Shown here: piece by piece, positions 1,793-55,428 of the stretch | Layout of the letters: the number at the start of each line of letters is the position of its first letter | Numbering within the stretch: the stretch's first letter is position 1 | Source of the DNA: a virus | Virus record (IMG/VR): IMGVR_UViG_3300012927_000004 | Reading direction: 5' to 3' (one strand) | Length of the DNA: 64,000 nt | The notes under the pieces: generated by a model | What the model was told of the DNA's origin: nothing | Seen by the model: only the letters and a program-made list of their open reading frames with translations | Databases searched by the model: none | Program-made: the position numbers and the translations under genes

Positions 1793-4700
1793 ATGCCTTC
1801 GCTTGTTGTTCCTCAAATCGAGTTGGATCGCCTGATTCAGTTAATATTGGATCATTACAAATTTCAATACGGAATCACCGTAACAGCCGACACGATTACT
1901 GCTTCATTCATTCAACCTCGTGTCGGTTGGATAACAGGTTTTGAAATCGTCAGTAATAGTGATTCAGATAATTTTAGTTGTCGTTTTTATATTAACTATA
2001 CTTCTGATTATAAATCAAATCTAGATCCTTTTCAGATTGAAGAAATCATTAACACATCTTATACATCCGGATTAGCGAATAATCGATATGTTTGCTATGC
2101 AGTTCTTCCCAGGACTCAGTTTCCAACACTATCTAAATATGTTTTTGTACCCGTAGACGACGGGGGTGGTGGAAGTCCAAGTACTTATACTGTAGGATTT
2201 CTACAAACAACCGGTAGTGTTGTTTCTGGTCAATCTCTTGACATCAATATTGGAATTGATAGCGCACCTTCTGCAATTGTTACAGCTCACTACGCTTCTG
2301 CTAACGGAACCGCTGTAGCATCAGTAGACTATGTCGCTCTTGATGGAACTACAACGTGGGATGTTAATGATGGCGTTCAGAAAACAATTACACTTTATAC
2401 TGGTGAACCCTATTATTATCATTGGGTAGCCGGATATGATACATCGCAATTCACACTTGTTGACAGTGCCGATGGTCTTATTTATAATGCGACGAATAAC
2501 GATACCCAAAATACTTACTATCCAAGTATTCGCACTTTCAATCTCGCACTACCATCAGTAGATCAAAACTATTATCACGAGTTCTTATTTGGGCCTAATG
2601 GATTCCAACAGCATATAACTATTGAAATCGATATCAATACGGTCGATGGTAGCGGAAATACGAGTAGCTCATTTTACGCAGCGTATTTACAATACAATAC
2701 AGGCACTAATGTATTTGATGCTCAAATCTATTCTACTTTTAATGGTCAAAATTTAACACCACCAAATCCAATTACGATGCCAGTTACCATTGGGTTCGAA
2801 ATAAATCATGATTCGGCAATTAAGTTCTTTATTAATGATACTTGGTATAATGTCGATGACTTCAGTTTCAATTCTGATGCTTCTCAGATCGCTTTCTCTG
2901 ATATGAGTTATCTATCTGGTTTGACAATTACGAGTGTTAATTTATTGATTACTTTTGATCTAACAACGAACGGTGGTGGATCAAATATCTTTGATATGAC
3001 TGCAAAGGTATCACCAAATCAAATCCATGTACCGTCAGATGCGATTAGTCCACCAGCTGGTTATATCGGAACGTCGGGTGGTACGCTAAGTCTCACGTTG
3101 AGTAATCCTAGCAGTAATGCTACAATTGGTACTACTACAGATAACATAACGATTTTAGATGCGAATGTTTGTTATCAGAAACTTATTGTGAATGATGATG
3201 AAACCGGATTTGATAATTCAACTGGTTCCATCATAACAGGTTATGGTGGTATTCATTATCTCTATACGAATGTGAATTGGAGTAATACTACATCAAGTTG
3301 TGGTGTTATTGCTGATCTTCGTTTAACTGCAACAAATGATCCAACTCAACTTGGTGTTACTGATTTTAGTCAGACGCCATTAACAGCAGCAGGAATTACT
3401 AACTTCCCAGTATTTCCAAACATCATGATCGATGATGTTCGAGAAGTTACTACGTTCTCATGGCCTAATGGTAAATTTCCAGTTTCTGGAAATTTTAGTT
3501 TTAATACAACCGATAATGATCTTCCTTATAATCTTACCCTTAATTCAGATGGTAGTTATGAGGTAAAATTCAGATTCAGATCTTTCCCAATCTCTGGTCA
3601 AAGTAACTTGATGTATAAGTTAATGGATTATAATAATACAGATACGAAGGGTTCACTTCCTAAACTTAATAAACCCAGTCTATTAATCCAGTCTTATGAC
3701 GGAACTAGTGCATACATCTTGATTTATTCAAACGATGTTTTATATGATCATACCGGTTCTGTAATTAACCAAGGTTATACTTTCACATATACACTAGACG
3801 GCTCTGATCCTAATAGTGGTGGGTCAACCATTTCTTCAGGTAGTCAATTCCAGACTGCAGCTACTCCTGGAACGATTGTAAAATTTAAAGCATCAGCTAC
3901 AGGGTTCACTGATAGTGACGTATCAACCTGTACTTTGAACTACTTTACTCGTGATCTTACTTTCCCTTATTTGACAAATAGTATTTCTGGGAATACAAAT
4001 AACATTTTCTATTTCAATGCAGATGGACCATTTACTGGGTATGAAAGTATTCTGATTACACTTACTGATCAGAATTCTAGTCCTGGATCTGACACAATGG
4101 TATATTCTTTTGATGGAGAAACATGGCATGATTATACAGCACCATTTAGTTTCCCTGTAGGATGGAAAACTCCAATTGGTAAGGCTGGTTTTCCATCCGT
4201 ATTTTACTATACCAAACAAGCAAATACACATACATCGAGTATTGCAAATCTTAATATCTTTATTGAATACCCCAGTCGTAATCTAACATTTGTTCCAAAT
4301 CAAAATGATACAAGTGTTAGTGTTGCCAACAAAACAGTAACACTTGTCAATACAATTCACAACAATACTGAATTAGTTCCTGTTGCATATTTCCAAACAC
4401 ATGCAACATGTACGGATGATTTTCGTTATATCGAAATGAAATGTACCAATCTTGTTGATCAAGATGGAATTCTTCAGATTCATTTTAATTCTGTTGGATT
4501 TGGTCAAGACGGACATGTTTATCCGACCAATTATAGTCCTGTTAGTGTTCCAGCTCTTGCTTGGACTGTGGGTGATACACTTTGTTTCTGGTATAATTAT
4601 CTTAATGGATCGTTCCAAGTAAGAGTTAATAATGGTGCTTGGCAGAACACATCACAAGAATTGTTTTACACAACGTATTCTGAATTCAATATGGGAATTC

Positions 4701-4822: not shown

Positions 4823-5460
4823 TCGAAGTTCAAGTAATCACCTCTAGTCAAGACAATCAAGACTGGTACCAGAAATGTCTAACTGGACTTCAATCTCCTG
4901 TCGTGAATATCCATTATGGAGAGCTGGTTGAAGGAAATACAAGTGCAGCACGTATGGCGGTCTGGGATGCTTGTGGTGGCGATCTGTTAAGTTTTGCAGA
5001 TCCTGATGACATTCCGGTAGCGAATGCCTGGCAGAAGCTTCAGGATGCGTTAGACGCGAATCCTAAGGCCATGGGGGCATATACACTTGAACAAATCATC
5101 GGTGATGATGGATCACCACGAGGTAAGCCGATTAACAACCAGTATTTGGATGCTACACATTCCGTTCTGGTAGTTCATCATCTCCTGGTTGTTCGTCGTC
5201 CACTCTACGAATTAATTCGTCCTTATCTTCAAACGATCAATAGCGGATGCGAATGGTTCTTAGCTATTGCTGCATTAAAGAAAGGCGGTCTTATAAAGAT
5301 TCCAGAAGTGGGTTACTATTGGCGTCGACATGACGTACCAGGAATGTTTGCGGGGCCTGATCCAAATGGAAAGATTCGTAACTTAGCATCTAAGCTTGAT
5401 ACCACTATGAAACAACGAGATGATTTCATTAAGTGGCTTGACGCTCAATCTTCTCTTTAA
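4819..5460 (+). CDS. GT-A (family-2-like) glycosyltransferase candidate
   Basis: Its start overlaps the upstream stop as ATGA. 'GNTSAARMAVWDACGGDLLSFADPDD' resembles the GT2 'ARN.G...A.G..i.f.D.DD' (DxD) region. The DNA is visibly GC-richer than the flanks. Confidence 0.45.
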   Translation: MIEVQVITSSQDNQDWYQKCLTGLQSPVVNIHYGELVEGNTSAARMAVWDACGGDLLSFADPDDIPVANAWQKLQDALDANPKAMGAYTLEQIIGDDGSPRGKPINNQYLDATHSVLVVHHLLVVRRPLYELIRPYLQTINSGCEWFLAIAALKKGGLIKIPEVGYYWRRHDVPGMFAGPDPNGKIRNLASKLDTTMKQRDDFIKWLDAQSSL

Positions 5461-10063: not shown

Positions 10064-11179
10064 TTATTCGTTATACAACTTGACCGCATTCTGAGCAAAC
10101 AATTTCAGAAGCGTAATGGTAGTACCCAGGATATAAGGAGACATCACATTACGAGCTGCGATGGACCGACATCCAAAAACCGCATCGATTTCTTCACCTG
10201 CTTCTGTATAAAGTTTGTAATCCATGACTTCTGAGTTAACACTTTTCATTTGATTCGCGAAAACCACCTTATCAGCAATTCCCATATTCATGTTAACAGT
10301 GATATAGAAACGAATCTCGGCTTTATTCAAACCAAGCGGCGTTCCTTCAACACGATAATCGTCAGTCACTTCCCCAGTAAACTTGGGTTTATGGGTGCTT
10401 TTAGCTTGTTCAGAAATGAATTGATCGCTAAGATCAGCTAATTTACGGAGAGAAGAACTCATCTGTTCCTTATCACCGTGATAGAAGACCTCTATACGAT
10501 CCACAATTCCGAAATAATTGGAACGAGGAGATTGCTTAGAAAGACCTTTCAGTGTCTCAATAGCGTTCTCACCAAACGTTCCGATTTGAGATGTTATTTC
10601 ATCTTCGACACTCATTAAAATGTCTTGTGGTTTAACAGTTTGAGAAGGTTTTACAACATGATGAATATTCTGTTCGAATGTCACCACAAAACTTCTCAAG
10701 TAAGTAACCCTAGTCTCAAGCTTCTCTGATAACTTTTTCGAAATAGAAGAAGCATCTTCATGAGTTTGTTTGGTTTCCCATAATACAGTTTTAGCTGTCA
10801 ATGAGTTTTTCATCACAAGTTGACCAGGATTCCAAACATCATATTCGAAATAAGAAATGTTATAAGCAATGGGATCTCCCTTCTTAAAGGACTCCCCTTC
10901 CTTAACAGATGCTTCGATATCAAACGGAAAGATCGATCCTTCAGATCGACCAAACTGACGTCCTAATTCAACACCGATCATTTTACCACTTTTGTATTGA
11001 ACAACAACACCTTTATCAGTTACCTTAGTAACAACACCATCCTCTTTTGCACAGTAAGCAAAAAGAGGATTTGTCCGTTGTGCAATAATCGATTCAAATC
11101 CAGTTCTTACAAAAGGTGGGTGATATCCTTTTGCTGGAATGCCGTGACTATTCTGAATTGAGATGAAATTGATACGATT
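10064..11179 (-). CDS. multisubunit RNAP beta-like subunit, exon 2 (371 codons)
   Basis: 'ISIQNSHGIPAKGYHPPFVRTGFESI..GVVTKVTDKGVVVQY' aligns with E. coli beta '[32 protein letters not shown]'. 'ADKVVFANQMKSVNSEV..IDAVFGCRSIAARNVMSPYILG' aligns with '[36 protein letters not shown]'. The frame stays open upstream of the annotated Met back to a TGA at about 11192..11194. Confidence 0.8.
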   Translation of the reverse strand, partial: NRINFISIQNSHGIPAKGYHPPFVRTGFESIIAQRTNPLFAYCAKEDGVVTKVTDKGVVVQYKSGKMIGVELGRQFGRSEGSIFPFDIEASVKEGESFKKGDPIAYNISYFEYDVWNPGQLVMKNSLTAKTVLWETKQTHEDASSISKKLSEKLETRVTYLRSFVVTFEQNIHHVVKPSQTVKPQDILMSVEDEITSQIGTFGENAIETLKGLSKQSPRSNYFGIVDRIEVFYHGDKEQMSSSLRKLADLSDQFISEQAKSTHKPKFTGEVTDDYRVEGTPLGLNKAEIRFYITVNMNMGIADKVVFANQMKSVNSEVMDYKLYTEAGEEIDAVFGCRSIAARNVMSPYILGTTITLLKLFAQNAVKLYNE

Positions 11180-11687
11180 CATCGAGAATATTCAAACAAA
11201 CTCGCTAGGTCTGTTTCGCGCCATTACGCGCAGCTTTAGGTCTCCCTAAAGTCTAGGTCATATCTTCACCCACAGCTTAACCTGGTTGGGTGCTTCCCAT
11301 TTCGGATCGCTTGATCCTACAGGCTGACAAAGCCCTGACCGTCGAACCTTCTCCATATCCGAAGACGTAGGAGCTTGGCTGCTGATTGTCTCTACTCCGG
11401 GCTTTTCCAACCCTGGCTTTGTCTTTCGACTCGCAGTGGTGACCGGATTTGACGAGATGTTCCAGCAATTAAAGAAGATTCAACTGTAGATTTCTCTACA
11501 GTCGGACTATAGTACGAATAGATGTATCCATCGGGATAAACACCTTTGTTATTGTTGGTTCTAAACCCCATGTTAAGTGTGGTTTTCTTGATATTGAATC
11601 AAGAAAAAATCAACAATAACAATTTACGTACGTTCAATCGTCGTGCATTGCACCCGCTGCTAAAAGAACAGCCGAACAGTGTCGATT
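11180..11687 (-). ncRNA. ORF-less group I-like self-splicing intron in the RNAP beta gene (boundaries predicted, +/- a few nt)
   Basis: - It splits the conserved beta 'ANR......MQRQAVP' block.
- R-like 'GGUUCGACGGUCAGG' (11334..11348) and S-like 'GAAGAUAUGACCUAGAC' (11251..11267) can form P7 (GGUCA/UGACC).
- P3 candidate CAAAGCC (11415..11421) / GGCUUUG (11328..11334) directly abuts P7.
- Several hairpins are GNRA-capped, for example 11483..11502 and 11232..11253.
- GC content is much higher than the surroundings.
- With these boundaries the 5' exon ends in U and the intron ends in G. Confidence 0.65.
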
Positions 11688-14600
11688 AGCATTTTGGACT
11701 TCCGCATCATGATTCTTAAGACCACGATGATTACGAAGATGAGGATCTGAAGAGGTATAGATATTAACACCCACATCAGAACTATCTACAGTTCCTTCAG
11801 AGATTACACCGACATCTTGAACATGAAAAGATCGAGAAGCTTTATTCATTCCATCAGAAGAACGACCGCCTTCTCCAACATAGGTTACACTTTCATCATT
11901 CTTAATGTCTTGAATCGGATTGATTTCAGGAACTAACATTACAGTTGGATCACTGTTGATAGCTGACCAGACCTTATAAGGACTGATATCAATCTTACTT
12001 CGACCTGCTATGTTCTTACTCCGGAACTGACGAATAGCTGCCGTCATTTCTTTATAGACAGCACCAGAGAAACGTTCATATCCTCGAATACGTGTATAGG
12101 AACCATCGTATTCTTTTGGATGTTGATATGACATTAACATTTCAGTAGCTTTCAAAAGTAATCCATCGAAAGTCACTGGTTCATTCATGTCTTTTAATAT
12201 TTCTTCAGTGATAGGATCGATGAAATAATCAAACAACATATCAATCTCACGAAGATAGATTGCACCTAGACCTTTACTGGTTAAGAGATTCATGTAGATA
12301 TCTTGATGTTCAAAATCCTTAACACTTGCCGATTTCGTCATCTTGGCATAATCTAAGAATCCAGCCAGTATCATTGTTGCAAAGTGATTTTTACGAGAGA
12401 AGATATAAACACCGTCATTAAACGGAATGGGATATTCATCTGGCGTAAGATTCAATCGTTTCTTTGGTTCAACAAAACGTGGTTTGACTTCCAATAAAGC
12501 TAGAAGTTTAGACCACCCCAATCGGTAACCTAAAATCACACCTACTGGCACATTTTTGCGAAAGATTGCTAATTCACTAAAACGAATAGGTGAGTTATGA
12601 GGATCCAAATTAAGAACTTTAAAGATATCCCCAAAAAGTTCTAATTTTCCTTCTTTTAAAATATAAAAGTCATTATTCATATCAACCCAAAGAAGTCCGT
12701 TATCCGGAGCATGTCCACACCACCGCATACCTTCTCTAGGAGATGACATCCTAATATTCTTACCGTTATCGCACATCAAAGAAAAGCCTCCTGCTTTAAA
12801 GGAGACGAAGCTTGTTGAAAGTAAACCGAAGATATAAGGTATCTTGGCATAAGAATCAAAGGTATTACCAGGTACTACATCTTTGATCCATTCACTACCT
12901 TCAAAAGAAGCCTTATTGATTTGCTTTAAGATCCAATCAGAAGTGCTATTTGCAATTTTACTTTCCGAAGAAACAAATGCTTTTCCATAGTAGCTATTCA
13001 GAGAGACTTCGTTCGGACTGATCTTACGAATCGGTAAGTCTGCACGATTCTTTCTAAGCATATAACGGTTACCCGCTACCTTAAACGAACCGTCATGTTC
13101 AACGACTGGAAGTTTAAACCAAATTGAAGAAGCAGTACCATTGATAGGTTTCAATTGTAGATTATGAATTTCTACATTTCCCATCACGGTATGTTCTTGA
13201 GTGATCTCATGTTTTTGAATAATGACACCACCCTTCTGAAGACCACCCACCATTTTAATAACATCATTCTTCATGTGTTCATCGATGTAATCACGAGTAT
13301 AACTCTGAAGTGTACTTTGAGTCATGCTCTTATCAATGATAGTTGGATGATCGGCTAACTGTGTCTCACTTGAATGAATGATCAGTTGTTCTGGATGGAT
13401 TTCAGTCTTTTGAGCTGTTAAATTACCACTACCATAAGGGTCTAACATCTTAATATAAGCATCGGCATCTTGAAGCGCTTTCTTATAAGAAGCAGCATTC
13501 AATGTTCCATCTTCTAATGCTTCGACCATTTTCTTCTTTAAGGCATTATTAGGTATTAATGCTGTATGAACTTCTTCATGAATATCTTCGTGGTTATAAA
13601 CTGTCGTAGGATGAACTTCTACAACTTCGTTATCTTTTAATGAAATACCACGCTTATGAAGATCAAAACGATTCTTTTGTTCCAGAATCTCCATATCGTC
13701 ATTCAGATTCTGGATGATATTATCGCTAAGTTCATCGATTGCATCGATAGATTTCAAAGGTTCTTGAAACTTCTTTTCTATAGGGGGGGTTATATTCTTT
13801 TGTTGAAAACTTTCGATCGGACCTTCGTCGATGTAATCGTGTTCATCATTATGATCTTCAATCTCTTCAACAGTTTCTTCTGTCTGAGGAATAGTTTCAG
13901 CTGCATCTTCAGGAATCGCAGAAGAAATAACCAATAGGTATTTAAGTAAAGCTCTAACCATGATCTTACGATCACGTTGTAAAGATACTTTAATCGTAGA
14001 GACGTTTTCATCACCTTTGATCCAACTATAAAAGTACGAAAGGTTCAAAGTGCTACAACGTCCATCTGCTAACATGAAAACCATGTTAATCTTCTTCAGT
14101 GCTTCAATAGGAATCAAATTGAAAACACTACGATCTCTCAACTCGTCTTTGATAAAATTAGACAAATGAAGAATCAAACGTTTCTCATGAGTATTAAATA
14201 AACGAGCTAACGTCATACCTTCTTTATCAGAATAATTCAACAACATGTTATAACTGGGGATATTAATGATTGGATCCAAAAGAACAAAATGTTGACGATT
14301 AGATTTTAATGCCAATGCACCAATATGTGACCAGAATGTTTTCTGATAACTCTCCCATTTCTGATATTCGGAAATGGGAGTATGAACATATCGATATGTG
14401 AATTTCAATGGATTGTAATCCACCACAATCATCGTACGTTCATCAATTTGTATGTCAGATGCTCGAGGAATATAACGAAACAGATTATGTTTCTTGATGA
14501 ATGGTAGAATAAAACGTTGTGGAACAAACGGAAGTGTTCTTGGATGCCCTTCCATTAAGTCACTGTGATAAACCAGTTCTAAAGGAAGACGTTTGCTATA

Positions 14601-14771
14601 TCCTTGAAAATAAGGTTTTGATGCATCTGGAAACATTTCATCATCTTGAGTGAAATGATGCAACATTGAATTACGAGGAAATCCTTTAAAGATTTGAAGA
14701 CGTGGAGATATCAGTTCGTTAAAACGACGTACTCCTGTCTCACGGTAAAATTGCGTATAAAGTTGTAACAT
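11688..14771 (-). CDS. multisubunit RNAP beta-like subunit, exon 1 (1028 codons; ORF track reads through to a stop at 11634 inside the intron)
   Basis: 'YVGEGGRSSDGMNKASRSFHVQDVGVISEGTVDSSDVGVNIYTSS' aligns with E. coli beta '[43 protein letters not shown]'. 'HDAEVQNANR' aligns with 'HDDANR'. Confidence 0.8.
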
Positions 14772-50277: not shown

Positions 50278-50841
50278 TTAAAAACCTAATGCAATAGCAT
50301 AAGTTTGACCTACAGCAATTGCATCAACCGCATGTTCATCTAAGGTTTCGACTGGCGTAATAAGTTTTGATCGAAGATTATTATCTTGAGCCAAAGCTTC
50401 TCTCATCACCAACTTACCTGTTTGACCACTCCTCTTGAACGTTTGCTTAACTTGTTGAGGAGAATAACAAATAAAAGGGATATTGATGTTGTATTGATTT
50501 GTCTCCATCCGAAGTGCTGTAACTGTTTCGGTTAGAGAACCAAAAGCAGATGGCATCTTTGGATTATAGAAAGGACTTTCACAACAAATCAATATAGGAT
50601 TAACGCTATAAAGAACACTTCTAAAAGCGAGACAGAGTCTATGCATCTTAGCATTCCGTTCACTCTGGAATTCTTCTTGATATTCACTTTCAAATCGTAT
50701 CTTATTATTTATTAGGGTAAAAGCCTCGATCGATTGTAATCGATTATCAAATACTCTAAAGACCGAGATCCCACAAGTAGCTAATCCTGGATCGATACCG
50801 ATCCAGGAGTAGTTCCTAAAATACTCCGGTGGGACGATCAT
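50278..50841 (-). CDS. ruvC: RuvC-like Holliday junction resolvase
   Basis: 'WIGIDPGLATCGISV', 'CCESPFYN', 'YSPQQVKQT' and 'DEHAVDAIAVG' parallel E. coli RuvC 'LGIDPGSRVTGYGV', 'AIEQVF', 'YAARQVKQT' and 'DAADALAIAI'. Confidence 0.8.
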   Translation of the reverse strand: MIVPPEYFRNYSWIGIDPGLATCGISVFRVFDNRLQSIEAFTLINNKIRFESEYQEEFQSERNAKMHRLCLAFRSVLYSVNPILICCESPFYNPKMPSAFGSLTETVTALRMETNQYNINIPFICYSPQQVKQTFKRSGQTGKLVMREALAQDNNLRSKLITPVETLDEHAVDAIAVGQTYAIALGF

Positions 50842-50854
50842 GTTCCCAAAAGGA

Positions 50855-51700
50855 TTAAACTTGAACAGTCAAGAGAGGTTCGGAGTTCCCTACATCGAAT
50901 GTATATCGAATACCTTGACTCCAATCTGCAGATGGAAAGTTGGTCGACAAGTACGACATAACTTGTGTTGCGATACTTTCCGTATAGGTTGTTGAAATAC
51001 CCCCGGAGGTAACAGTAACTACTCTATCAACACCAGAGCACAAAGCAATCTCACTAATCACTGCATGGTTCTCATCACCATAGATGAGACTTGAAGCATT
51101 CAGAAGTTCCAGAACATCATTTGCGTCCAGAATGAATGGTAGCGATCCTGTTGCGCTGATATAGTTACCATTAGTAGTAACCGTTGTGCCAGATGAGAGT
51201 AGTGTTGGTGTAGGAGAAAGATTACTAGATCCTGGTGTAAAATCTGATATACTAACCGAACCATCGCTAGCTACATCACGATTCTGAAGCGCCATAGCGA
51301 TCGTTGAAAGATCCAAAATTTTACCGTAATAGGCAAAGTAATTCACACTACCTACCGTAATCAATTTTCGAAGTCGATAATTTTCTTGGATGGTAGAACT
51401 GATATCGGAGCTGATAGGTCGAACGATAAAAGGAAGTTCTTGAAAAAGCCCAGTGTCAGTTGGTTTGTGGTTATACGAAGTCGTATAAGTGAATCCATCA
51501 GCACCTGTTCCGACAGATAAACCTCCGATCCCTACCATCGCATATTTCAATTTCGGAATCTCTCCAGAATTGAGTGTTGCAGCAGCTTGGATATTCAACT
51601 TCTGATTGAGCGTACTATAAGGAAGTACCGTATAAGGTAAGTCCATTAGCATACACGCCTGAAGTAATGATTTCATAATGGTTGGAACGTTTCTTTCCAA
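50855..51700 (-). CDS. hypothetical structural-module protein (281 aa), TTG start
   Basis: TTG start with 'agaggg' 8 nt upstream. Beta-rich S/T/G composition. Confidence 0.55.
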   Translation of the reverse strand: MERNVPTIMKSLLQACMLMDLPYTVLPYSTLNQKLNIQAAATLNSGEIPKLKYAMVGIGGLSVGTGADGFTYTTSYNHKPTDTGLFQELPFIVRPISSDISSTIQENYRLRKLITVGSVNYFAYYGKILDLSTIAMALQNRDVASDGSVSISDFTPGSSNLSPTPTLLSSGTTVTTNGNYISATGSLPFILDANDVLELLNASSLIYGDENHAVISEIALCSGVDRVVTVTSGGISTTYTESIATQVMSYLSTNFPSADWSQGIRYTFDVGNSEPLLTVQV

Positions 51701-51717
51701 GACACAATCCCTCTAAT

Positions 51718-53097
51718 TTATATAACAGTTATGTAACTATATCCATCGATATGTTGAACACGTTGACAGTATCGATAAGAAGGTTGATAAATCTTTTCAT
51801 TTATTTTAAAAACAAACTTACCAGAAGCTCGGCATACTACACGACTGACCTTTGACCAAAGTGGTGGGTTAATACCAGATTTGATAGAAGATCTTACACG
51901 AACAAGATCACCTGTTCTGAATCCAAAGAAATATTTCTGTCTAGGTATATAAGCTTTAATAAAACCATATTGGTCAGGTATTGCTCTTTGATATCTACCT
52001 CTACCATTACATTTTATATGTAATGTTTTATGAATCCATCCATGTATTTTAACTATATAACCAATACAAATAGCATCTAGAGCATGAGTTTTGGGTATTT
52101 TAAAACGTAATCTATTAAATTTCGTTAACCCACCACTTCCAGTTTCAATTAATAAACCAGTTTTAATAAGTGCTAATCTAAGTTCATTTCGTATAGCGTT
52201 CATAACCGCCATATCTCGAAGAGGTTTTAATATTTGTTTCTTAAATTTATCTATCTTAATTTGATTAAAATTTAAGAACTCTTGATAACTTTTATTACCT
52301 TTAGTTTGATTACACTCTTTGCAAGCAAGAACTAAATTAATCAAACGATTAGATCCACCTCTACTACGAGGAATTACGTGATCTATTTGAAAACCTTTAG
52401 AACACCCATTTCCGCAGTAAGCACATTTATGATCGAATTTAAGTAATAAATATTCACGAAGTTCGTATCCTAATAATGTACCTTGTTGATACATTATGCC
52501 TTCTAAATGAGTATTTTGAGCCAGTTGTGTATCGAACTTAACATCCTCATAAACAATTTTAGTAATTGGAAACCATCGTCTAAGTCGATTAACCCAAGAC
52601 ATCGTGCTATCAATACGATGTTGGATAGAAGGAGGTAACCATCCTTGTGGTCTAGTACGATTTAAGAAACGAGCTTCACGATAACGTGTTTTACGCGAAC
52701 GCCTGTTACGGCGATGCATAGCTCGATTATAAAGTTTTAATTTAATAACACGGCCACGATGTTCTAATTCCATTAAACGAATAACTGTAATTTCGTTTGG
52801 TCTATCTTCACGCACGATAGCTAATCCGGTTGTTTTACTACCAGGATCAATTTTAATTTGTGTAGGTTGTAATTTACAATTGATTTGTGTTCGATCAAGT
52901 AATTGAATAATGAACGGTTCTCTACGAATTACCTTCGCACGACCTTTATCTAAAAGTTTCCTTGCACTTTTGCCACTACATGGCATTAGTGGTTTACCAT
53001 CACTTCCAATTACACTAACAAAAGTAATTGGTTTAACTTTTACTCGACCTGATTTTGAGATAACGATACGTCTTCCATTATTCTGTTTCTTTTCCAT
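51718..53097 (-). CDS. iscB: IscB, RNA-guided RuvC/HNH nuclease of the OMEGA family (459 aa from ATG 53097; ORF track extends to GTG 53175)
   Basis: These motifs appear in order: PLMP 'GKPLMPCSGKSARKLL'; RuvC-I 'IKIDPGSKTTGLAIV'; bridge helix 'HRRNRRSRKTRYREARFLNR' plus 'GWLPPS'; RuvC-II 'IVYEDVKFD'; HNH 'CAYCG..IDHVIPRSRGGSNRLINLVLACKECNQTKGN' (52297..52425); RuvC-III 'KTHALDAICIG'; and a C-terminal beta-rich ~100 aa. Confidence 0.88.
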   Translation of the reverse strand: MEKKQNNGRRIVISKSGRVKVKPITFVSVIGSDGKPLMPCSGKSARKLLDKGRAKVIRREPFIIQLLDRTQINCKLQPTQIKIDPGSKTTGLAIVREDRPNEITVIRLMELEHRGRVIKLKLYNRAMHRRNRRSRKTRYREARFLNRTRPQGWLPPSIQHRIDSTMSWVNRLRRWFPITKIVYEDVKFDTQLAQNTHLEGIMYQQGTLLGYELREYLLLKFDHKCAYCGNGCSKGFQIDHVIPRSRGGSNRLINLVLACKECNQTKGNKSYQEFLNFNQIKIDKFKKQILKPLRDMAVMNAIRNELRLALIKTGLLIETGSGGLTKFNRLRFKIPKTHALDAICIGYIVKIHGWIHKTLHIKCNGRGRYQRAIPDQYGFIKAYIPRQKYFFGFRTGDLVRVRSSIKSGINPPLWSKVSRVVCRASGKFVFKINEKIYQPSYRYCQRVQHIDGYSYITVI

Positions 53098-53358
53098 CAA
53101 AAATTCCAATAATCCCGTAAGGGACTTGTTAGTCACTCTCGCCAATGTTATCTTAAGTTGACTACTACTTATCACACTACTCCTATCTCACAGAGTTGTT
53201 TAATGATAAGACCATAGAGCTTGGAACTGAGTGGGCATTCCAAGATATGCATCAAAATAACGTAGTATTTTCATACTGAGGCTGATTCATCTAGTCTTAC
53301 AACTCACGTATTAAAGTGGAGTGGATGAACTTTTTTCCATTTTTAATGTTTTCCGAGG
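53098..53358 (-). ncRNA. candidate omega RNA (guide + scaffold) upstream of / overlapping the iscB 5' end
   Basis: A block of about 260 nt lies between the upstream gene's stop and the preferred iscB ATG, with no convincing coding function. It contains local stems, for example 53220..53244 (cttggaa/ttccaag) and 53113..53124 (tccc/ggga). IscB loci are known to encode their omega RNA at exactly this position. No covariance model was run. Confidence 0.45.
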
Positions 53359-55428
53359 TTAGCTAAGGTATTCGACAGTGACATCTTGCATAATCACACC
53401 AACAGGTAAACGAGCTGTGTTGGTGGTATAACTATCAGGAGTCCCATCACCTTGATTAATAGTTCCGTAGAAGATATTGGGTTCTAGTCGTGCTAGTGTA
53501 AGATCTGACTCACTGATGATTTCGATATACTGAATATTGTAACTGGTCAATGAACGCATAATTTTGATCATTGCTTGAGTAACATCTTTCTGATCAGACG
53601 AAGTATTAACTGAAATGCCTGTTCCAGCCTGATACAGATTGGTGATCAATTGAGGAAGATATTGACCAACAACCTCATACGAATCTAAGTTGTTCAAGTT
53701 TAAAAACTCACTTGCAGTAGTAGAAGAAGTTTCCAATTCCACTACAGTGTCTGCAAAAAGGTTGTATGCCATGTTCTTGACGTACCCTTTTGCAATTGGA
53801 TCTTGATGACTAGCGATCAAAGTATTTTGATTGATATAATTCAGATAAACATTTAGAATCAATGTATAAAATAGACTCGTGGTATTTGTAATAGTTAGTG
53901 GAACAAATCCAGCCATTAAAATTTGAGCATCAGTCAATAACAAATCACGATACGATTGATCAACTAAATCAATCAGAGTATTTGCTGAAATCAATGAACT
54001 TGTATTAACATGTTGTTGTGCTAAGAAGTTAGGAATTAAAGTAACGGGTTCGGGTGTTGTGATTGTGTTATATTTCACAAGTTGATTTAAGTCACTAGAA
54101 GGAATTCCTACAATTAAATCCTGGGCCATTCCTTGTGAGGTATAAGACAAAGATAAGTAATAGAGATACTCAAACGCAGCTTTGGCTGTTATCGTCTGCT
54201 GTGTACCTGTGCGAGGATTCTGGAATGTTACACTAGCAGTATAAAGACCTACTGCGGCCATATATCCCCAATGTGTAAGAATAAAATCATTAAAACTTAA
54301 TGTTGTTACATTGACCGTATCTTGAGTCTGTGTAATAACATCTTTAGTAATGACACGCGCTTGATTTTGATGTGAGATATCAAAGAGAACGTCGTTCAAT
54401 TTTGCATCGTAATAATCTGTGGTACCATATAGAACTGTCTTTTCTTTGTTAAACAGGTCTTGTGGTGTTAAAGTCTCAGTAGAAGGAACAATCTGAACAA
54501 CATTTAGTGGTTCAGATTCGATAATAGTATTTGGGGTATAATCGCTTTCGATTTGATTTGTTTGACGAACTGTATATCCAAACATCTGAATATTACGAGG
54601 ACTAAGGATATTAGTCATTAATTCTGAGAACTGACTATCATATCCCATATAACGTACTAAACGAGGTAAATTGCGATAAAGATACATCGCTTGTTTTTGC
54701 GTAAGGTAAGGATAATATTGATCCAGTCCCATATATCCTCGTAAGAACATTCTCACATGGAAAGAATGAGCTTCGTAAGTATTGCGACAAGCATCTCGAA
54801 GATTAAAAAGTTTTGGAAGAATAAAAAGAGACAAATTGGCATAAAATGCCATGAGATAATAACCATCTGTTAAGGAATAAGCATCAACATAAACACGTGC
54901 GGTATAGCGTTTAATTGCATCTTCCAAATTCTTAATTAAAGAATATTCGTTGGATTCAACCAAAGAAGTTTGATAACGAAGGATAGTTCCATCTTCTGCA
55001 TTAATGGCTGTGTTAATATTACAGGGCATTAGAATACCCATAATAACATCTTCTTGATTAGGATATTGGTTAACTAATGTCTGATAGTAACGTGTACCAA
55101 AAATATATTCAGCAGCGGTATTAGGACTTATTGCTAAATTTTCCTTGCTAAAAGTGATTGGTAGTAGAGTATCGAGTGACGTGATGGTCATCTGTGTATC
55201 GGTCGAATGATACTCACCTGAAAGATTAAGATAATATTTCCAGGTGGTTGGATCCGATAGGTTAACTGCAGACGTACCATATTCATTGATCAATGTTGTG
55301 TTTTGCGCATCAGCAGATTTACCTGATTTGATTCCTAATGTCCGAACCAGATTTAGATTTGCCTGGTAATAGTTTTGAATGAGCGGATCGTTGAGCGGAT
55401 CCGCTTCTCCCGTTATTGTATCCTTCAT
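53359..55428 (-). CDS. hypothetical structural-module protein (689 aa)
   Basis: Long ORF. No motif recognised. Confidence 0.6.
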   Translation of the reverse strand: MKDTITGEADPLNDPLIQNYYQANLNLVRTLGIKSGKSADAQNTTLINEYGTSAVNLSDPTTWKYYLNLSGEYHSTDTQMTITSLDTLLPITFSKENLAISPNTAAEYIFGTRYYQTLVNQYPNQEDVIMGILMPCNINTAINAEDGTILRYQTSLVESNEYSLIKNLEDAIKRYTARVYVDAYSLTDGYYLMAFYANLSLFILPKLFNLRDACRNTYEAHSFHVRMFLRGYMGLDQYYPYLTQKQAMYLYRNLPRLVRYMGYDSQFSELMTNILSPRNIQMFGYTVRQTNQIESDYTPNTIIESEPLNVVQIVPSTETLTPQDLFNKEKTVLYGTTDYYDAKLNDVLFDISHQNQARVITKDVITQTQDTVNVTTLSFNDFILTHWGYMAAVGLYTASVTFQNPRTGTQQTITAKAAFEYLYYLSLSYTSQGMAQDLIVGIPSSDLNQLVKYNTITTPEPVTLIPNFLAQQHVNTSSLISANTLIDLVDQSYRDLLLTDAQILMAGFVPLTITNTTSLFYTLILNVYLNYINQNTLIASHQDPIAKGYVKNMAYNLFADTVVELETSSTTASEFLNLNNLDSYEVVGQYLPQLITNLYQAGTGISVNTSSDQKDVTQAMIKIMRSLTSYNIQYIEIISESDLTLARLEPNIFYGTINQGDGTPDSYTTNTARLPVGVIMQDVTVEYLS

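Follow-up and report, generated by a model that had tools for sequence, protein, structure and literature searches.

The 64,000-nucleotide (nt) stretch of viral DNA analysed here (IMG/VR record IMGVR_UViG_3300012927_000004; hereafter the window) carries at positions 53346..51691, on the minus strand, what is probably a mobile element composed of an omega RNA and its IscB nuclease, which is inserted right at the beginning of the DUF7208 gene in a phiKZ-like jumbo phage and spreads by homing. The non-coding leader of iscB is a true omega RNA of the HEARO family, the nuclease has intact IscB motifs and the unit is an insertion relative to related phages. The guide position is directly 5' of the RNA scaffold and its sequence is homologous to the corresponding empty sites. 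The features of the locus are compiled in Table 1.

Table 1. Features of the iscB locus and of the genes on either side, in window coordinates
Feature	Position	Strand	Basis or remark
Upstream conserved virion gene, 689 amino acids (PHROG 3222)	53359..55428	minus	same orientation as iscB; read-through from it probably transcribes the omega RNA
Predicted omega RNA guide, 16 nt, TTAAAAATGGAAAAAA	53331..53346	minus	directly 5' of HEARO model position 1; Ralstonia control
Left repeat copy ATGGAAAAAA, remnant of the former DUF7208 start (ATG and codons 2-4); makes up the guide's 3' part	53331..53340	minus	DUF7208 starts of six relatives
Omega RNA scaffold	53128..53330	minus	full-length match to HEARO RF02033 and compensatory pairs
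3'-terminal hairpin of the omega RNA	53111..53127	minus	minimum free energy fold; same in L006, L007 and L008
iscB open reading frame, 459 amino acids from ATG 53097, stop codon 51720..51718	51718..53097	minus	Pfam RRXRR and HNH, solved IscB structures
Candidate target-adjacent motif if the element ends at the iscB stop, ~ATAAAT/ATTAGA (ATAAATTAGA)	~51721..51712	minus	deduced from this boundary
17-nt spacer ATTAGAGGGATTGTGTC from iscB stop to TTG, with Shine-Dalgarno-like GAGGG at 51713..51709	51701..51717	minus	read from the sequence
Right repeat copy TTGGAAAGAA, present DUF7208 start (TTG, Lys3 to Arg)	51691..51700	minus	N-terminus colinear with relatives
Candidate target-adjacent motif ACGTTC if the unit ends at 51691	51685..51690	minus	deduced from this boundary; relatives have AYGTWC there
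DUF7208 gene, 5' end is the insertion site	50855..51700	minus	Pfam PF23838 3.5e-86; adjoins the 689-amino-acid homologue in 6/6 relatives

Omega RNA leader and IscB nuclease

The covariance model of Rfam family HEARO (RF02033), which corresponds to the IscB omega RNA, matches the minus strand of the leader over its entire length (model positions 1-211 of 211) with E 1.7e-20 and 100.3 bits, where the gathering score is 83. No other HEARO match occurs in the 64-kb window; the end of this one is separated by 30 nt from the iscB start codon, ATG 53097, on the same strand. An omega RNA had been proposed at this place from the letters and a list of open reading frames (ORFs), and the covariance-model search bears this out. 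The limits assigned to the non-coding leader in that original prediction also agree with the reading frames: the ORF of the 689-amino-acid (aa) protein terminates at TAA 53361..53359 (minus strand), after which no ORF starts before GTG 53175 (183 nt) or ATG 53097 (261 nt).

Alignment of the window leader with the leaders of iscB genes at four other phage loci (L006, L007, L008 and L014) reveals helices common to all, and 34 of the 51 predicted pairs show compensatory changes. Folding of the 53098..53358 transcript, proposed earlier as a check, gave a divided answer. The minimum free energy structure contains both of the local stems that had been noticed at 53220..53244 and 53113..53124 (the second as 53125..53110), but its energy is no better than that of shuffled sequence (z = -0.46), a value to which no weight is given either way. 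The 53244..53220 stem is the conserved central hairpin of HEARO. The terminal hairpin (53111..53127; GUCCC-UUAC-GGGAU) sits just past the end of the Rfam model and recurs at the same place in L006, L007 and L008 as GGUCCGUAAGGACU or GUCCCGUAAGGG. Its position beyond the model is in agreement with the remark of Meers et al. that RF02033 is devoid of downstream structural elements (PMC10055086).

The iscB product carries the Pfam domains RRXRR (2.9e-67) and HNH (1e-13) and matches the chains of solved IscB structures at 6e-41 to 4e-30 (TbaIscB 6e-41, OgeuIscB 8e-31). It features the N-terminal PLMP region, the split RuvC domain with an arginine-rich bridge helix and the inserted HNH domain that define IscB proteins. 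The motifs IDPGS of RuvC-I, YEDVKF of RuvC-II, IDHVIP/CKECN of HNH and HALDA of RuvC-III are all kept, as is KPLMPC. Its nearest IscB relative among 5.8 billion proteins is 55% identical; the three members of its IscB cluster are one and the same protein with differing start calls. The reading frame is open from GTG 53175 and some gene callers use this codon (P0121, P0241), which would make the region upstream of ATG 53097 a translated N-terminal extension and leave no RNA gene. Such a reading has practically no credence, being contradicted by the location of GTG 53175 within the HEARO scaffold and by the alignments of ~7,000 homologues, which begin only at residue ~27 of the protein started at ATG 53097; RRXRR begins at residue 53 of the 485-aa version started at GTG. 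The segment that extends from GTG is therefore RNA and not protein, as had been anticipated. Note that the protein started at ATG 53097 has itself a basic N-terminal extension of 26 residues, MEKKQNNGRRIVISKSGRVKVKPITF (53020..53097, minus strand), ahead of the conserved VxVIGxDGKPLMPC. Most homologues are without it, and the nearest one (P0122) has a shorter version.

Insertion site, predicted guide and candidate element boundaries

The window comes from a phiKZ-like jumbo phage, with split genes for the multisubunit RNA polymerase beta proteins, a phiKZ internal head protein and the 689-aa protein, for which matches are found in ~290 phiKZ-like phages. Six relatives with protein identities of 50-65% to the window were compared (L002, L003 with L004 and L009, L005, L011, L012 and L013). 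The homologue of the 689-aa gene is followed directly by the DUF7208 gene in all six, with no iscB between them and with intergenic spacers of 17, 15, 35, 18, 19 and 16 nt. The omega RNA and iscB are therefore an insertion of ~1.6 kb that is absent from related phages, in line with the uninterrupted allele that the original prediction had assumed.

Occupied and empty sites of an element from Ralstonia phages serve as a control for where the guide lies. Phages Heva (L014) and Adzire (L015), of the genera Cimandefvirus and Bakolyvirus, share a 99%-identical IscB element of 1.73 kb, whose start coincides exactly with HEARO model position 1. In the sister phage Bakoly (L022) the empty site reads ...AACGCCCGGACGGTGT followed by ATGA and then by GAAAAAAG; phage Jenny is also empty. 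Comparison of these sites defines model position 1 as the element boundary, the 5' flank as the guide and ATGA as the target-adjacent motif (TAM). The Ralstonia system (Adzire/Simangalove/Heva versus Bakoly/Jenny; NC_054462, NC_054960, NC_054463) shares with the window a phage-borne iscB with a HEARO leader, an IscB protein that is 46% identical to that of the window, a guide formed by the 5' flank and sister phages whose uninterrupted site has the guide match followed by the TAM (ATGA). It differs in being intergenic, in ending at the iscB stop without a flanking repeat and in having clear GC-rich hairpins at both ends (GGCCTGAAGGCC), whereas the window element is rich in A+T, lacks a left-end hairpin that could be recognised and is without a close copy in databases. 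The Ralstonia element was probably acquired recently from the host, because it is present in two unrelated phage genera. The end of this element falls within the iscB stop codon (TG/A), an additional solo copy of 51 nt of the left end is found in Adzire (L015 1300..1350), and the Ralstonia phage iscB is labelled only 'HNH endonuclease' in GenBank.

The guide of the window element was set at 16 nt, the effective IscB guide being ~15-16 nt long (PMC12660989); a longer one would reach toward 53358. It starts 12 nt past the stop codon of the 689-aa gene, within the 28 nt that separate this stop from the scaffold. Its final 10 nt, ATGGAAAAAA, are identical to the clade-consensus first 10 nt of DUF7208 (ATG GAA AAA A), the start of this gene being (A/G)TGGAAAA(G/A)AA(C/T)GT in 6/6 relatives. 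Given the base composition, we calculate a probability of about 1 in 10^5 that a 10-mer of this kind would occur at a predetermined position by chance. Compared with the homologous empty site of L003 the guide matches at 14/16 positions, which is also the best match in that 10-kb locus; in the five other relatives the score is 8-12/16, a range that overlaps chance for A-rich sequence, with the mismatches on the TAM-distal side. Within the window there is no second match with fewer than two mismatches, and the two 2-mismatch matches are at chance level. As read from these alignments, the predicted guide is flanking phage sequence that matches the original DUF7208 start.

The original prediction had placed the guide at the 5' edge of the leader, abutting or overlapping the stop region of the 689-aa gene from whose 3' end it might derive, and had assumed that it matches the uninterrupted allele. 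The location at the 5' edge holds, and so does a partial resemblance to the uninterrupted allele, given the score with L003 and the 10/10 identity of the TAM-proximal part to the clade consensus; the abutment or overlap does not. A guide taken from the 689-aa gene is now very improbable. To extend into the stop codon it would have to exceed 28 nt, whereas the scaffold starts at 53330, the boundary of the control element is at model position 1 and a guide of the published length (PMC12660989) falls short of the gene. Moreover, the homology of the guide is with the region where DUF7208 starts in the relatives and not with the 689-aa gene.

At the other end of the insertion the DUF7208 gene has a rebuilt start. 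It reads TTG GAA AGA AAC GTT CCA, coding for LERNVPTIMKSLLQ, which is colinear with MEKNVPTI(M/I/L)KS of the relatives. Automatic gene calls on the Logan contig that carries the same locus begin DUF7208 at a downstream ATG (265 aa) and miss TTG 51700. On either side of the inserted DNA stands one copy of an imperfect 10-bp direct repeat (8/10): ATGGAAAAAA is the left and TTGGAAAGAA the right copy. Deletion of 53330..51691 in silico restores TAA, 18 nt and ATG GAA AAA AAC GTT CCA (MEKNVP), with a spacer like that of the relatives. The nearest relative, L003, lacks the 17 nt (ATTAGAGGGATTGTGTC) that separate the iscB stop from the TTG codon.

The right boundary can be placed in two ways. The favoured placement, to which we give somewhat more than even weight, includes in the inserted unit a 27-nt tail with the Shine-Dalgarno (SD) sequence, the start codon and codons 2-3, so that the insertion point is codon 4. 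The left flank alone then rebuilds a normal junction that resembles the nearest relative, and it is the right-hand SD and TTG that are unlike it; the reconstructed empty site is ...TTAAAAATGGAAAAAA joined to ACGTTCCAACC. The carrier's own DUF7208 start site reads TGTGTCTTGGAAAGAA followed by ACGTTCC. A distinctly less favoured placement would end the element at the iscB stop, in which case a spacer of 45 nt containing a vestigial start (ATG GAA AAA AAT TAG) would already have existed in the phage and the empty site would be ...TTAAAAATGGAAAAAA joined to ATAAATTAGAGGG or to ATTAGAGGG. This has a precedent in the family, as the Ralstonia element ends at the iscB stop, and it provides a WRR-like TAM. 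It involves no duplication at insertion, yet the phage must earlier have carried a duplicated start region and a spacer longer than in any relative. Transposition of IS200/IS605 elements creates no target duplication (PMC10055086), hence neither placement follows the textbook.

Other accounts of the element ends were considered and rejected. An alignment of the ends resembling terminal inverted repeats is no better than shuffles (p 0.09 and 0.42 for the end alignments), and continuation of the direct repeat within the scaffold (GTTCATCCA versus GTTCCAACCA) is not significant. Origin of the repeat by a staggered IscB cut with fill-in misfits the geometry, since the left copy is 3 nt short of the TAM-proximal end; use by TnpA of a second, outer TAM is contradicted by the difference between the two candidate motifs. 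A flanking repeat was also sought in other phage IscB loci and was found in L006 only, with none in L007, L008, L014 and L015. L006 has a perfect 9-bp repeat, CAAGATCTC, at 3741..3749 and 5358..5366, which abuts HEARO position 1 and recurs 44-52 nt past the iscB stop; its chance occurrence is ~5e-4 per locus. A repeat in the corresponding position at this second jumbo-phage locus is a hint that the arrangement may be recurrent. No empty site of the L006 locus was found in IMG/VR.

Homing model and alternative explanations

The omega RNA of IscB combines a scaffold formed by the transposon end with a guide encoded outside the element, and genes upstream are preferentially co-oriented (PMC10055086). 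The RNA therefore depends on transcription entering from outside. In the window, the 689-aa gene and the scaffold are co-oriented and 28 nt apart, and no promoter-like or terminator-like site was found between them, as the published model requires (PMC10055086). Read-through from the 689-aa gene would yield an RNA made of ~16 nt of guide (53346..53331) and ~220 nt of scaffold (53330..~53111), to which IscB translated from ATG 53097 would bind. The complex would cut TTAAAAATGGAAAAAA when followed by the TAM, an arrangement expected only in insertion-free genomes, where the target would comprise the ribosome-site spacer, the ATG and codons 2-4 of DUF7208. During mixed infection the cut insertion-free genome would be either repaired from the carrier, the element being copied in, or lost; between genomes too diverged for repair the break would eliminate the competitor. 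The carrier would be spared, its target adjoining the scaffold and its DUF7208 start being rebuilt 3' of iscB with a new SD, a TTG and a recoded codon 3. This working start matches the guide at 9/16 positions, with one mismatch 3 nt from the TAM side. In this scheme we infer that the RNA is expressed and processed, that a TAM is recognised and DNA cleaved, that the nuclease reaches the phage DNA and that repair copies the element.

A more specific proposal can be made only tentatively: that the omega RNA, iscB and a 27-nt 'repair kit' (SD, TTG and recoded codons 2-3) form a self-sufficient RNA-guided homing cassette. The kit might allow the cassette to occupy codons 1-4 of a virion-region gene that is essential and yet not inactivate it, while the guide would be aimed at the ancestral start in phages that are insertion-free or compete with the carrier.

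Several observations weigh against homing. The two placements of the right boundary leave TAM candidates that are only deduced from them. The guide is A-rich and of low complexity, such that 6-10 kb of related DNA contains matches of 12-13/16 by chance alone. Pairing is poor in the two small hairpins that open the scaffold (the transposon-end hairpin region), and the C-terminal tail of IscB after DGYSY has 4 residues, the shortest among 14 compared homologues. The 23 non-overlapped window ORFs of 95-250 aa include no TnpA (Y1_Tnp), and the genes on either side of the element are conserved phage genes; the window covers 64 kb of a 245-kb genome. The element may therefore no longer transpose and might be inactive. 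Finally, neither a close relative (>65% protein identity) nor an insertion-free allele is found in the collections searched, and a perfect natural target has never been seen. A DNA search of the phage collection for a close relative gave one 104-nt match at chance level only, a protein-pattern scan of IMG/VR gave no match, and a metagenome scan gave the L003-type relative and one 33% match only. Look-up of the exact protein identified two contigs; the insertion is present in the Logan contig, which shows 100% identity with the window across 14 kb. With a degenerate DNA pattern that describes the start of DUF7208, IMG/VR yielded chance matches only. The match between guide and target is therefore compared with distant empty sites only. 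Identity profiles of the flanking genes show no signal of mosaicism (co-conversion) at this divergence.

Part of this evidence would also fit a passenger remnant, namely a non-autonomous IS200/IS605 (ISC) element that inserted once and is now immobile, without targets or current role, and whose guide is a chance flank. The lack of TnpA next to the element or among the window ORFs of that size, the poor pairing of the transposon-end hairpins in the 5' scaffold, the truncated IscB C-terminus, with which the left-end hairpin of the Ralstonia type is missing, the presence of the insertion in both readable assemblies and the lack of any observed target all agree with it. A remnant is nevertheless rather unlikely, for the 459-codon ORF is intact with all catalytic motifs, the full-length scaffold scores above the Rfam gathering threshold, and related jumbo-phage contigs retain 1-2 copies of iscB with HEARO. 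Furthermore, the G+C content of the element (33.7% versus 38.2% in the window) is phage-like or lower, as of an element that is not recent and yet has not decayed; together with the intact ORF, this composition argues for long residence under selection.

Exclusion of competitors in place of spread is less probable still. The element would then act as a weapon whose guide strikes the DUF7208 start (start codon and codons 2-4), as the best conserved part of an essential gene, in co-infecting phiKZ-like phages that are too diverged to repair the break. The TAM-proximal 10 nt of the guide are nearly invariant in the six relatives in spite of their limited protein identity, and the carrier copy differs at two of these positions (TTG, AGA), both changes being unique in the clade; the group I intron in an RNA polymerase gene of the window also shows that selfish DNA is common in this genome. 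However, two unique changes in 10 nt are not remarkable (p ~0.3 by our estimate), five of the six relatives have TAM-distal mismatches to the guide (8-12/16 match), and the TAM needed is a candidate only. Ordinary homing would have the same side effect, and with these data the two are not separable.

Relation to known systems and implications

By protein and RNA criteria the locus is a member of the IscB/omega RNA (HEARO) group. It resembles IscB elements of the IS200/IS605 family such as ISGst5 of Geobacillus stearothermophilus (PMC10055086) in its IscB with RuvC and HNH domains, in the HEARO scaffold directly upstream on the same strand, in a guide taken from the flank just outside the element end that is expected to match the insertion-free site, and in the co-oriented upstream gene. 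The absence of tnpA is likewise shared with ~98% of iscB loci, tnpA being near only ~1.5% of iscB genes (PMC10055086). Unlike these elements, it resides in a phiKZ-like jumbo phage and not in a bacterial chromosome, it sits in the first codons of a conserved gene that is rebuilt with an SD and TTG 3' of iscB, it has an imperfect 10-bp repeat, and its end hairpins are weak or missing. Subterminal hairpins alike at both ends, which characterise IS200/IS605, were not found, as there is none similar near the iscB 3' end; the locus lacks features expected of an IS200/IS605 element that TnpA can now mobilise. Nor is it a type II CRISPR-Cas9 system: no CRISPR or tracrRNA is among the Rfam matches of the window, and the 459-aa protein is of IscB type. 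A flank-derived guide that targets the empty site is the published rule for IscB and TnpB of IS200/IS605 (PMC10055086), and >16% of HEARO-encoding fragments have been classed as viral or prophage-derived (PMC9755519). Viral IscB and a flank-derived guide are thus known already; what is unusual here is the phiKZ-like host, the insertion in the first codons with a rebuilt start, and the flanking repeat.

The free-standing homing endonucleases seg and mob of T-even phages, with intronless homing and marker exclusion (PMC13565253), offer a second comparison, as a functional analogy only. Their genes are also wedged between conserved phage genes, cutting of a co-infecting relative's allele followed by copying through repair is expected in both cases, and the carrier is protected by differences in its site. 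A presence/absence polymorphism between the same two genes, typical of such endonucleases, is seen across the clade of the window phage. The target of IscB would differ in being set by a ~16-nt RNA guide and a TAM, not by the protein.

Closer to the window by host is the pair PhiPA3 and PhiKZ, between which competition reportedly involves a protein-guided HNH endonuclease located inside a self-splicing intron. Both cases feature a selfish nuclease in a phiKZ-like phage that could disable or convert a co-infecting relative, and the window has a group I intron as well. In the window, unlike in PhiPA3, the host gene would be kept intact by a rebuilt translation start and not by splicing. The intron (RF00028, 60.4 bits, 11234..11523, minus strand) lies in a 451-nt gap between ORFs 10064..11182 and 11634..14771, which match consecutive parts (3-1050 and 1051-1424) of the RNA polymerase beta subunit PHROG 3148. 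This locus looks like an intron-split RNA polymerase gene of phiKZ type, with no endonuclease ORF within the intron. The gene that follows DUF7208 (50278..50841, minus strand) codes for a small RuvC-like protein (Pfam RuvC 3.3e-06) and has the same position in the relatives. It may be mere coincidence that a phage Holliday-junction resolvase is located beside a putative homing site.

This phage group is rich in selfish elements. A 203,315-nt contig (ENA ERZ15185861 NODE_17, the source of L006 and L007) encodes a homologue of the 689-aa protein with 34% identity and carries two copies of iscB with HEARO that are 82% identical at the nucleotide level over 1.47 kb, together with a TnpB gene (L006 88..1440) and a group I intron (L007 2436..2775).

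For bacterial chromosomes and plasmids, RNA-guided homing by IscB or TnpB is an established finding. Its extension to phages, termed 'transposon non-restorative homing' and with spread between co-infecting phages, is presented as theoretical in a 2026 review (PMC13565253). The window locus and the Adzire/Bakoly pair would be natural substrates for this idea, with a guide, a reconstructable empty site and a target in an essential gene. The locus also adds another compact, AT-rich IscB/omega RNA pair of potential practical use. Its phiKZ-like host raises the question of how a DNA nuclease gains access to the phage genome, and the rebuilt start with its flanking repeat points to a mode of insertion that textbook IS200/IS605 transposition leaves unexplained. 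If the proposal of a homing cassette with a repair kit is right, jumbo phages would engage in RNA-guided super-Mendelian inheritance or in interference competition with each other, and the rebuilt start would represent a third way for a selfish element to spare its host gene, besides splicing (introns and inteins) and intergenic placement.

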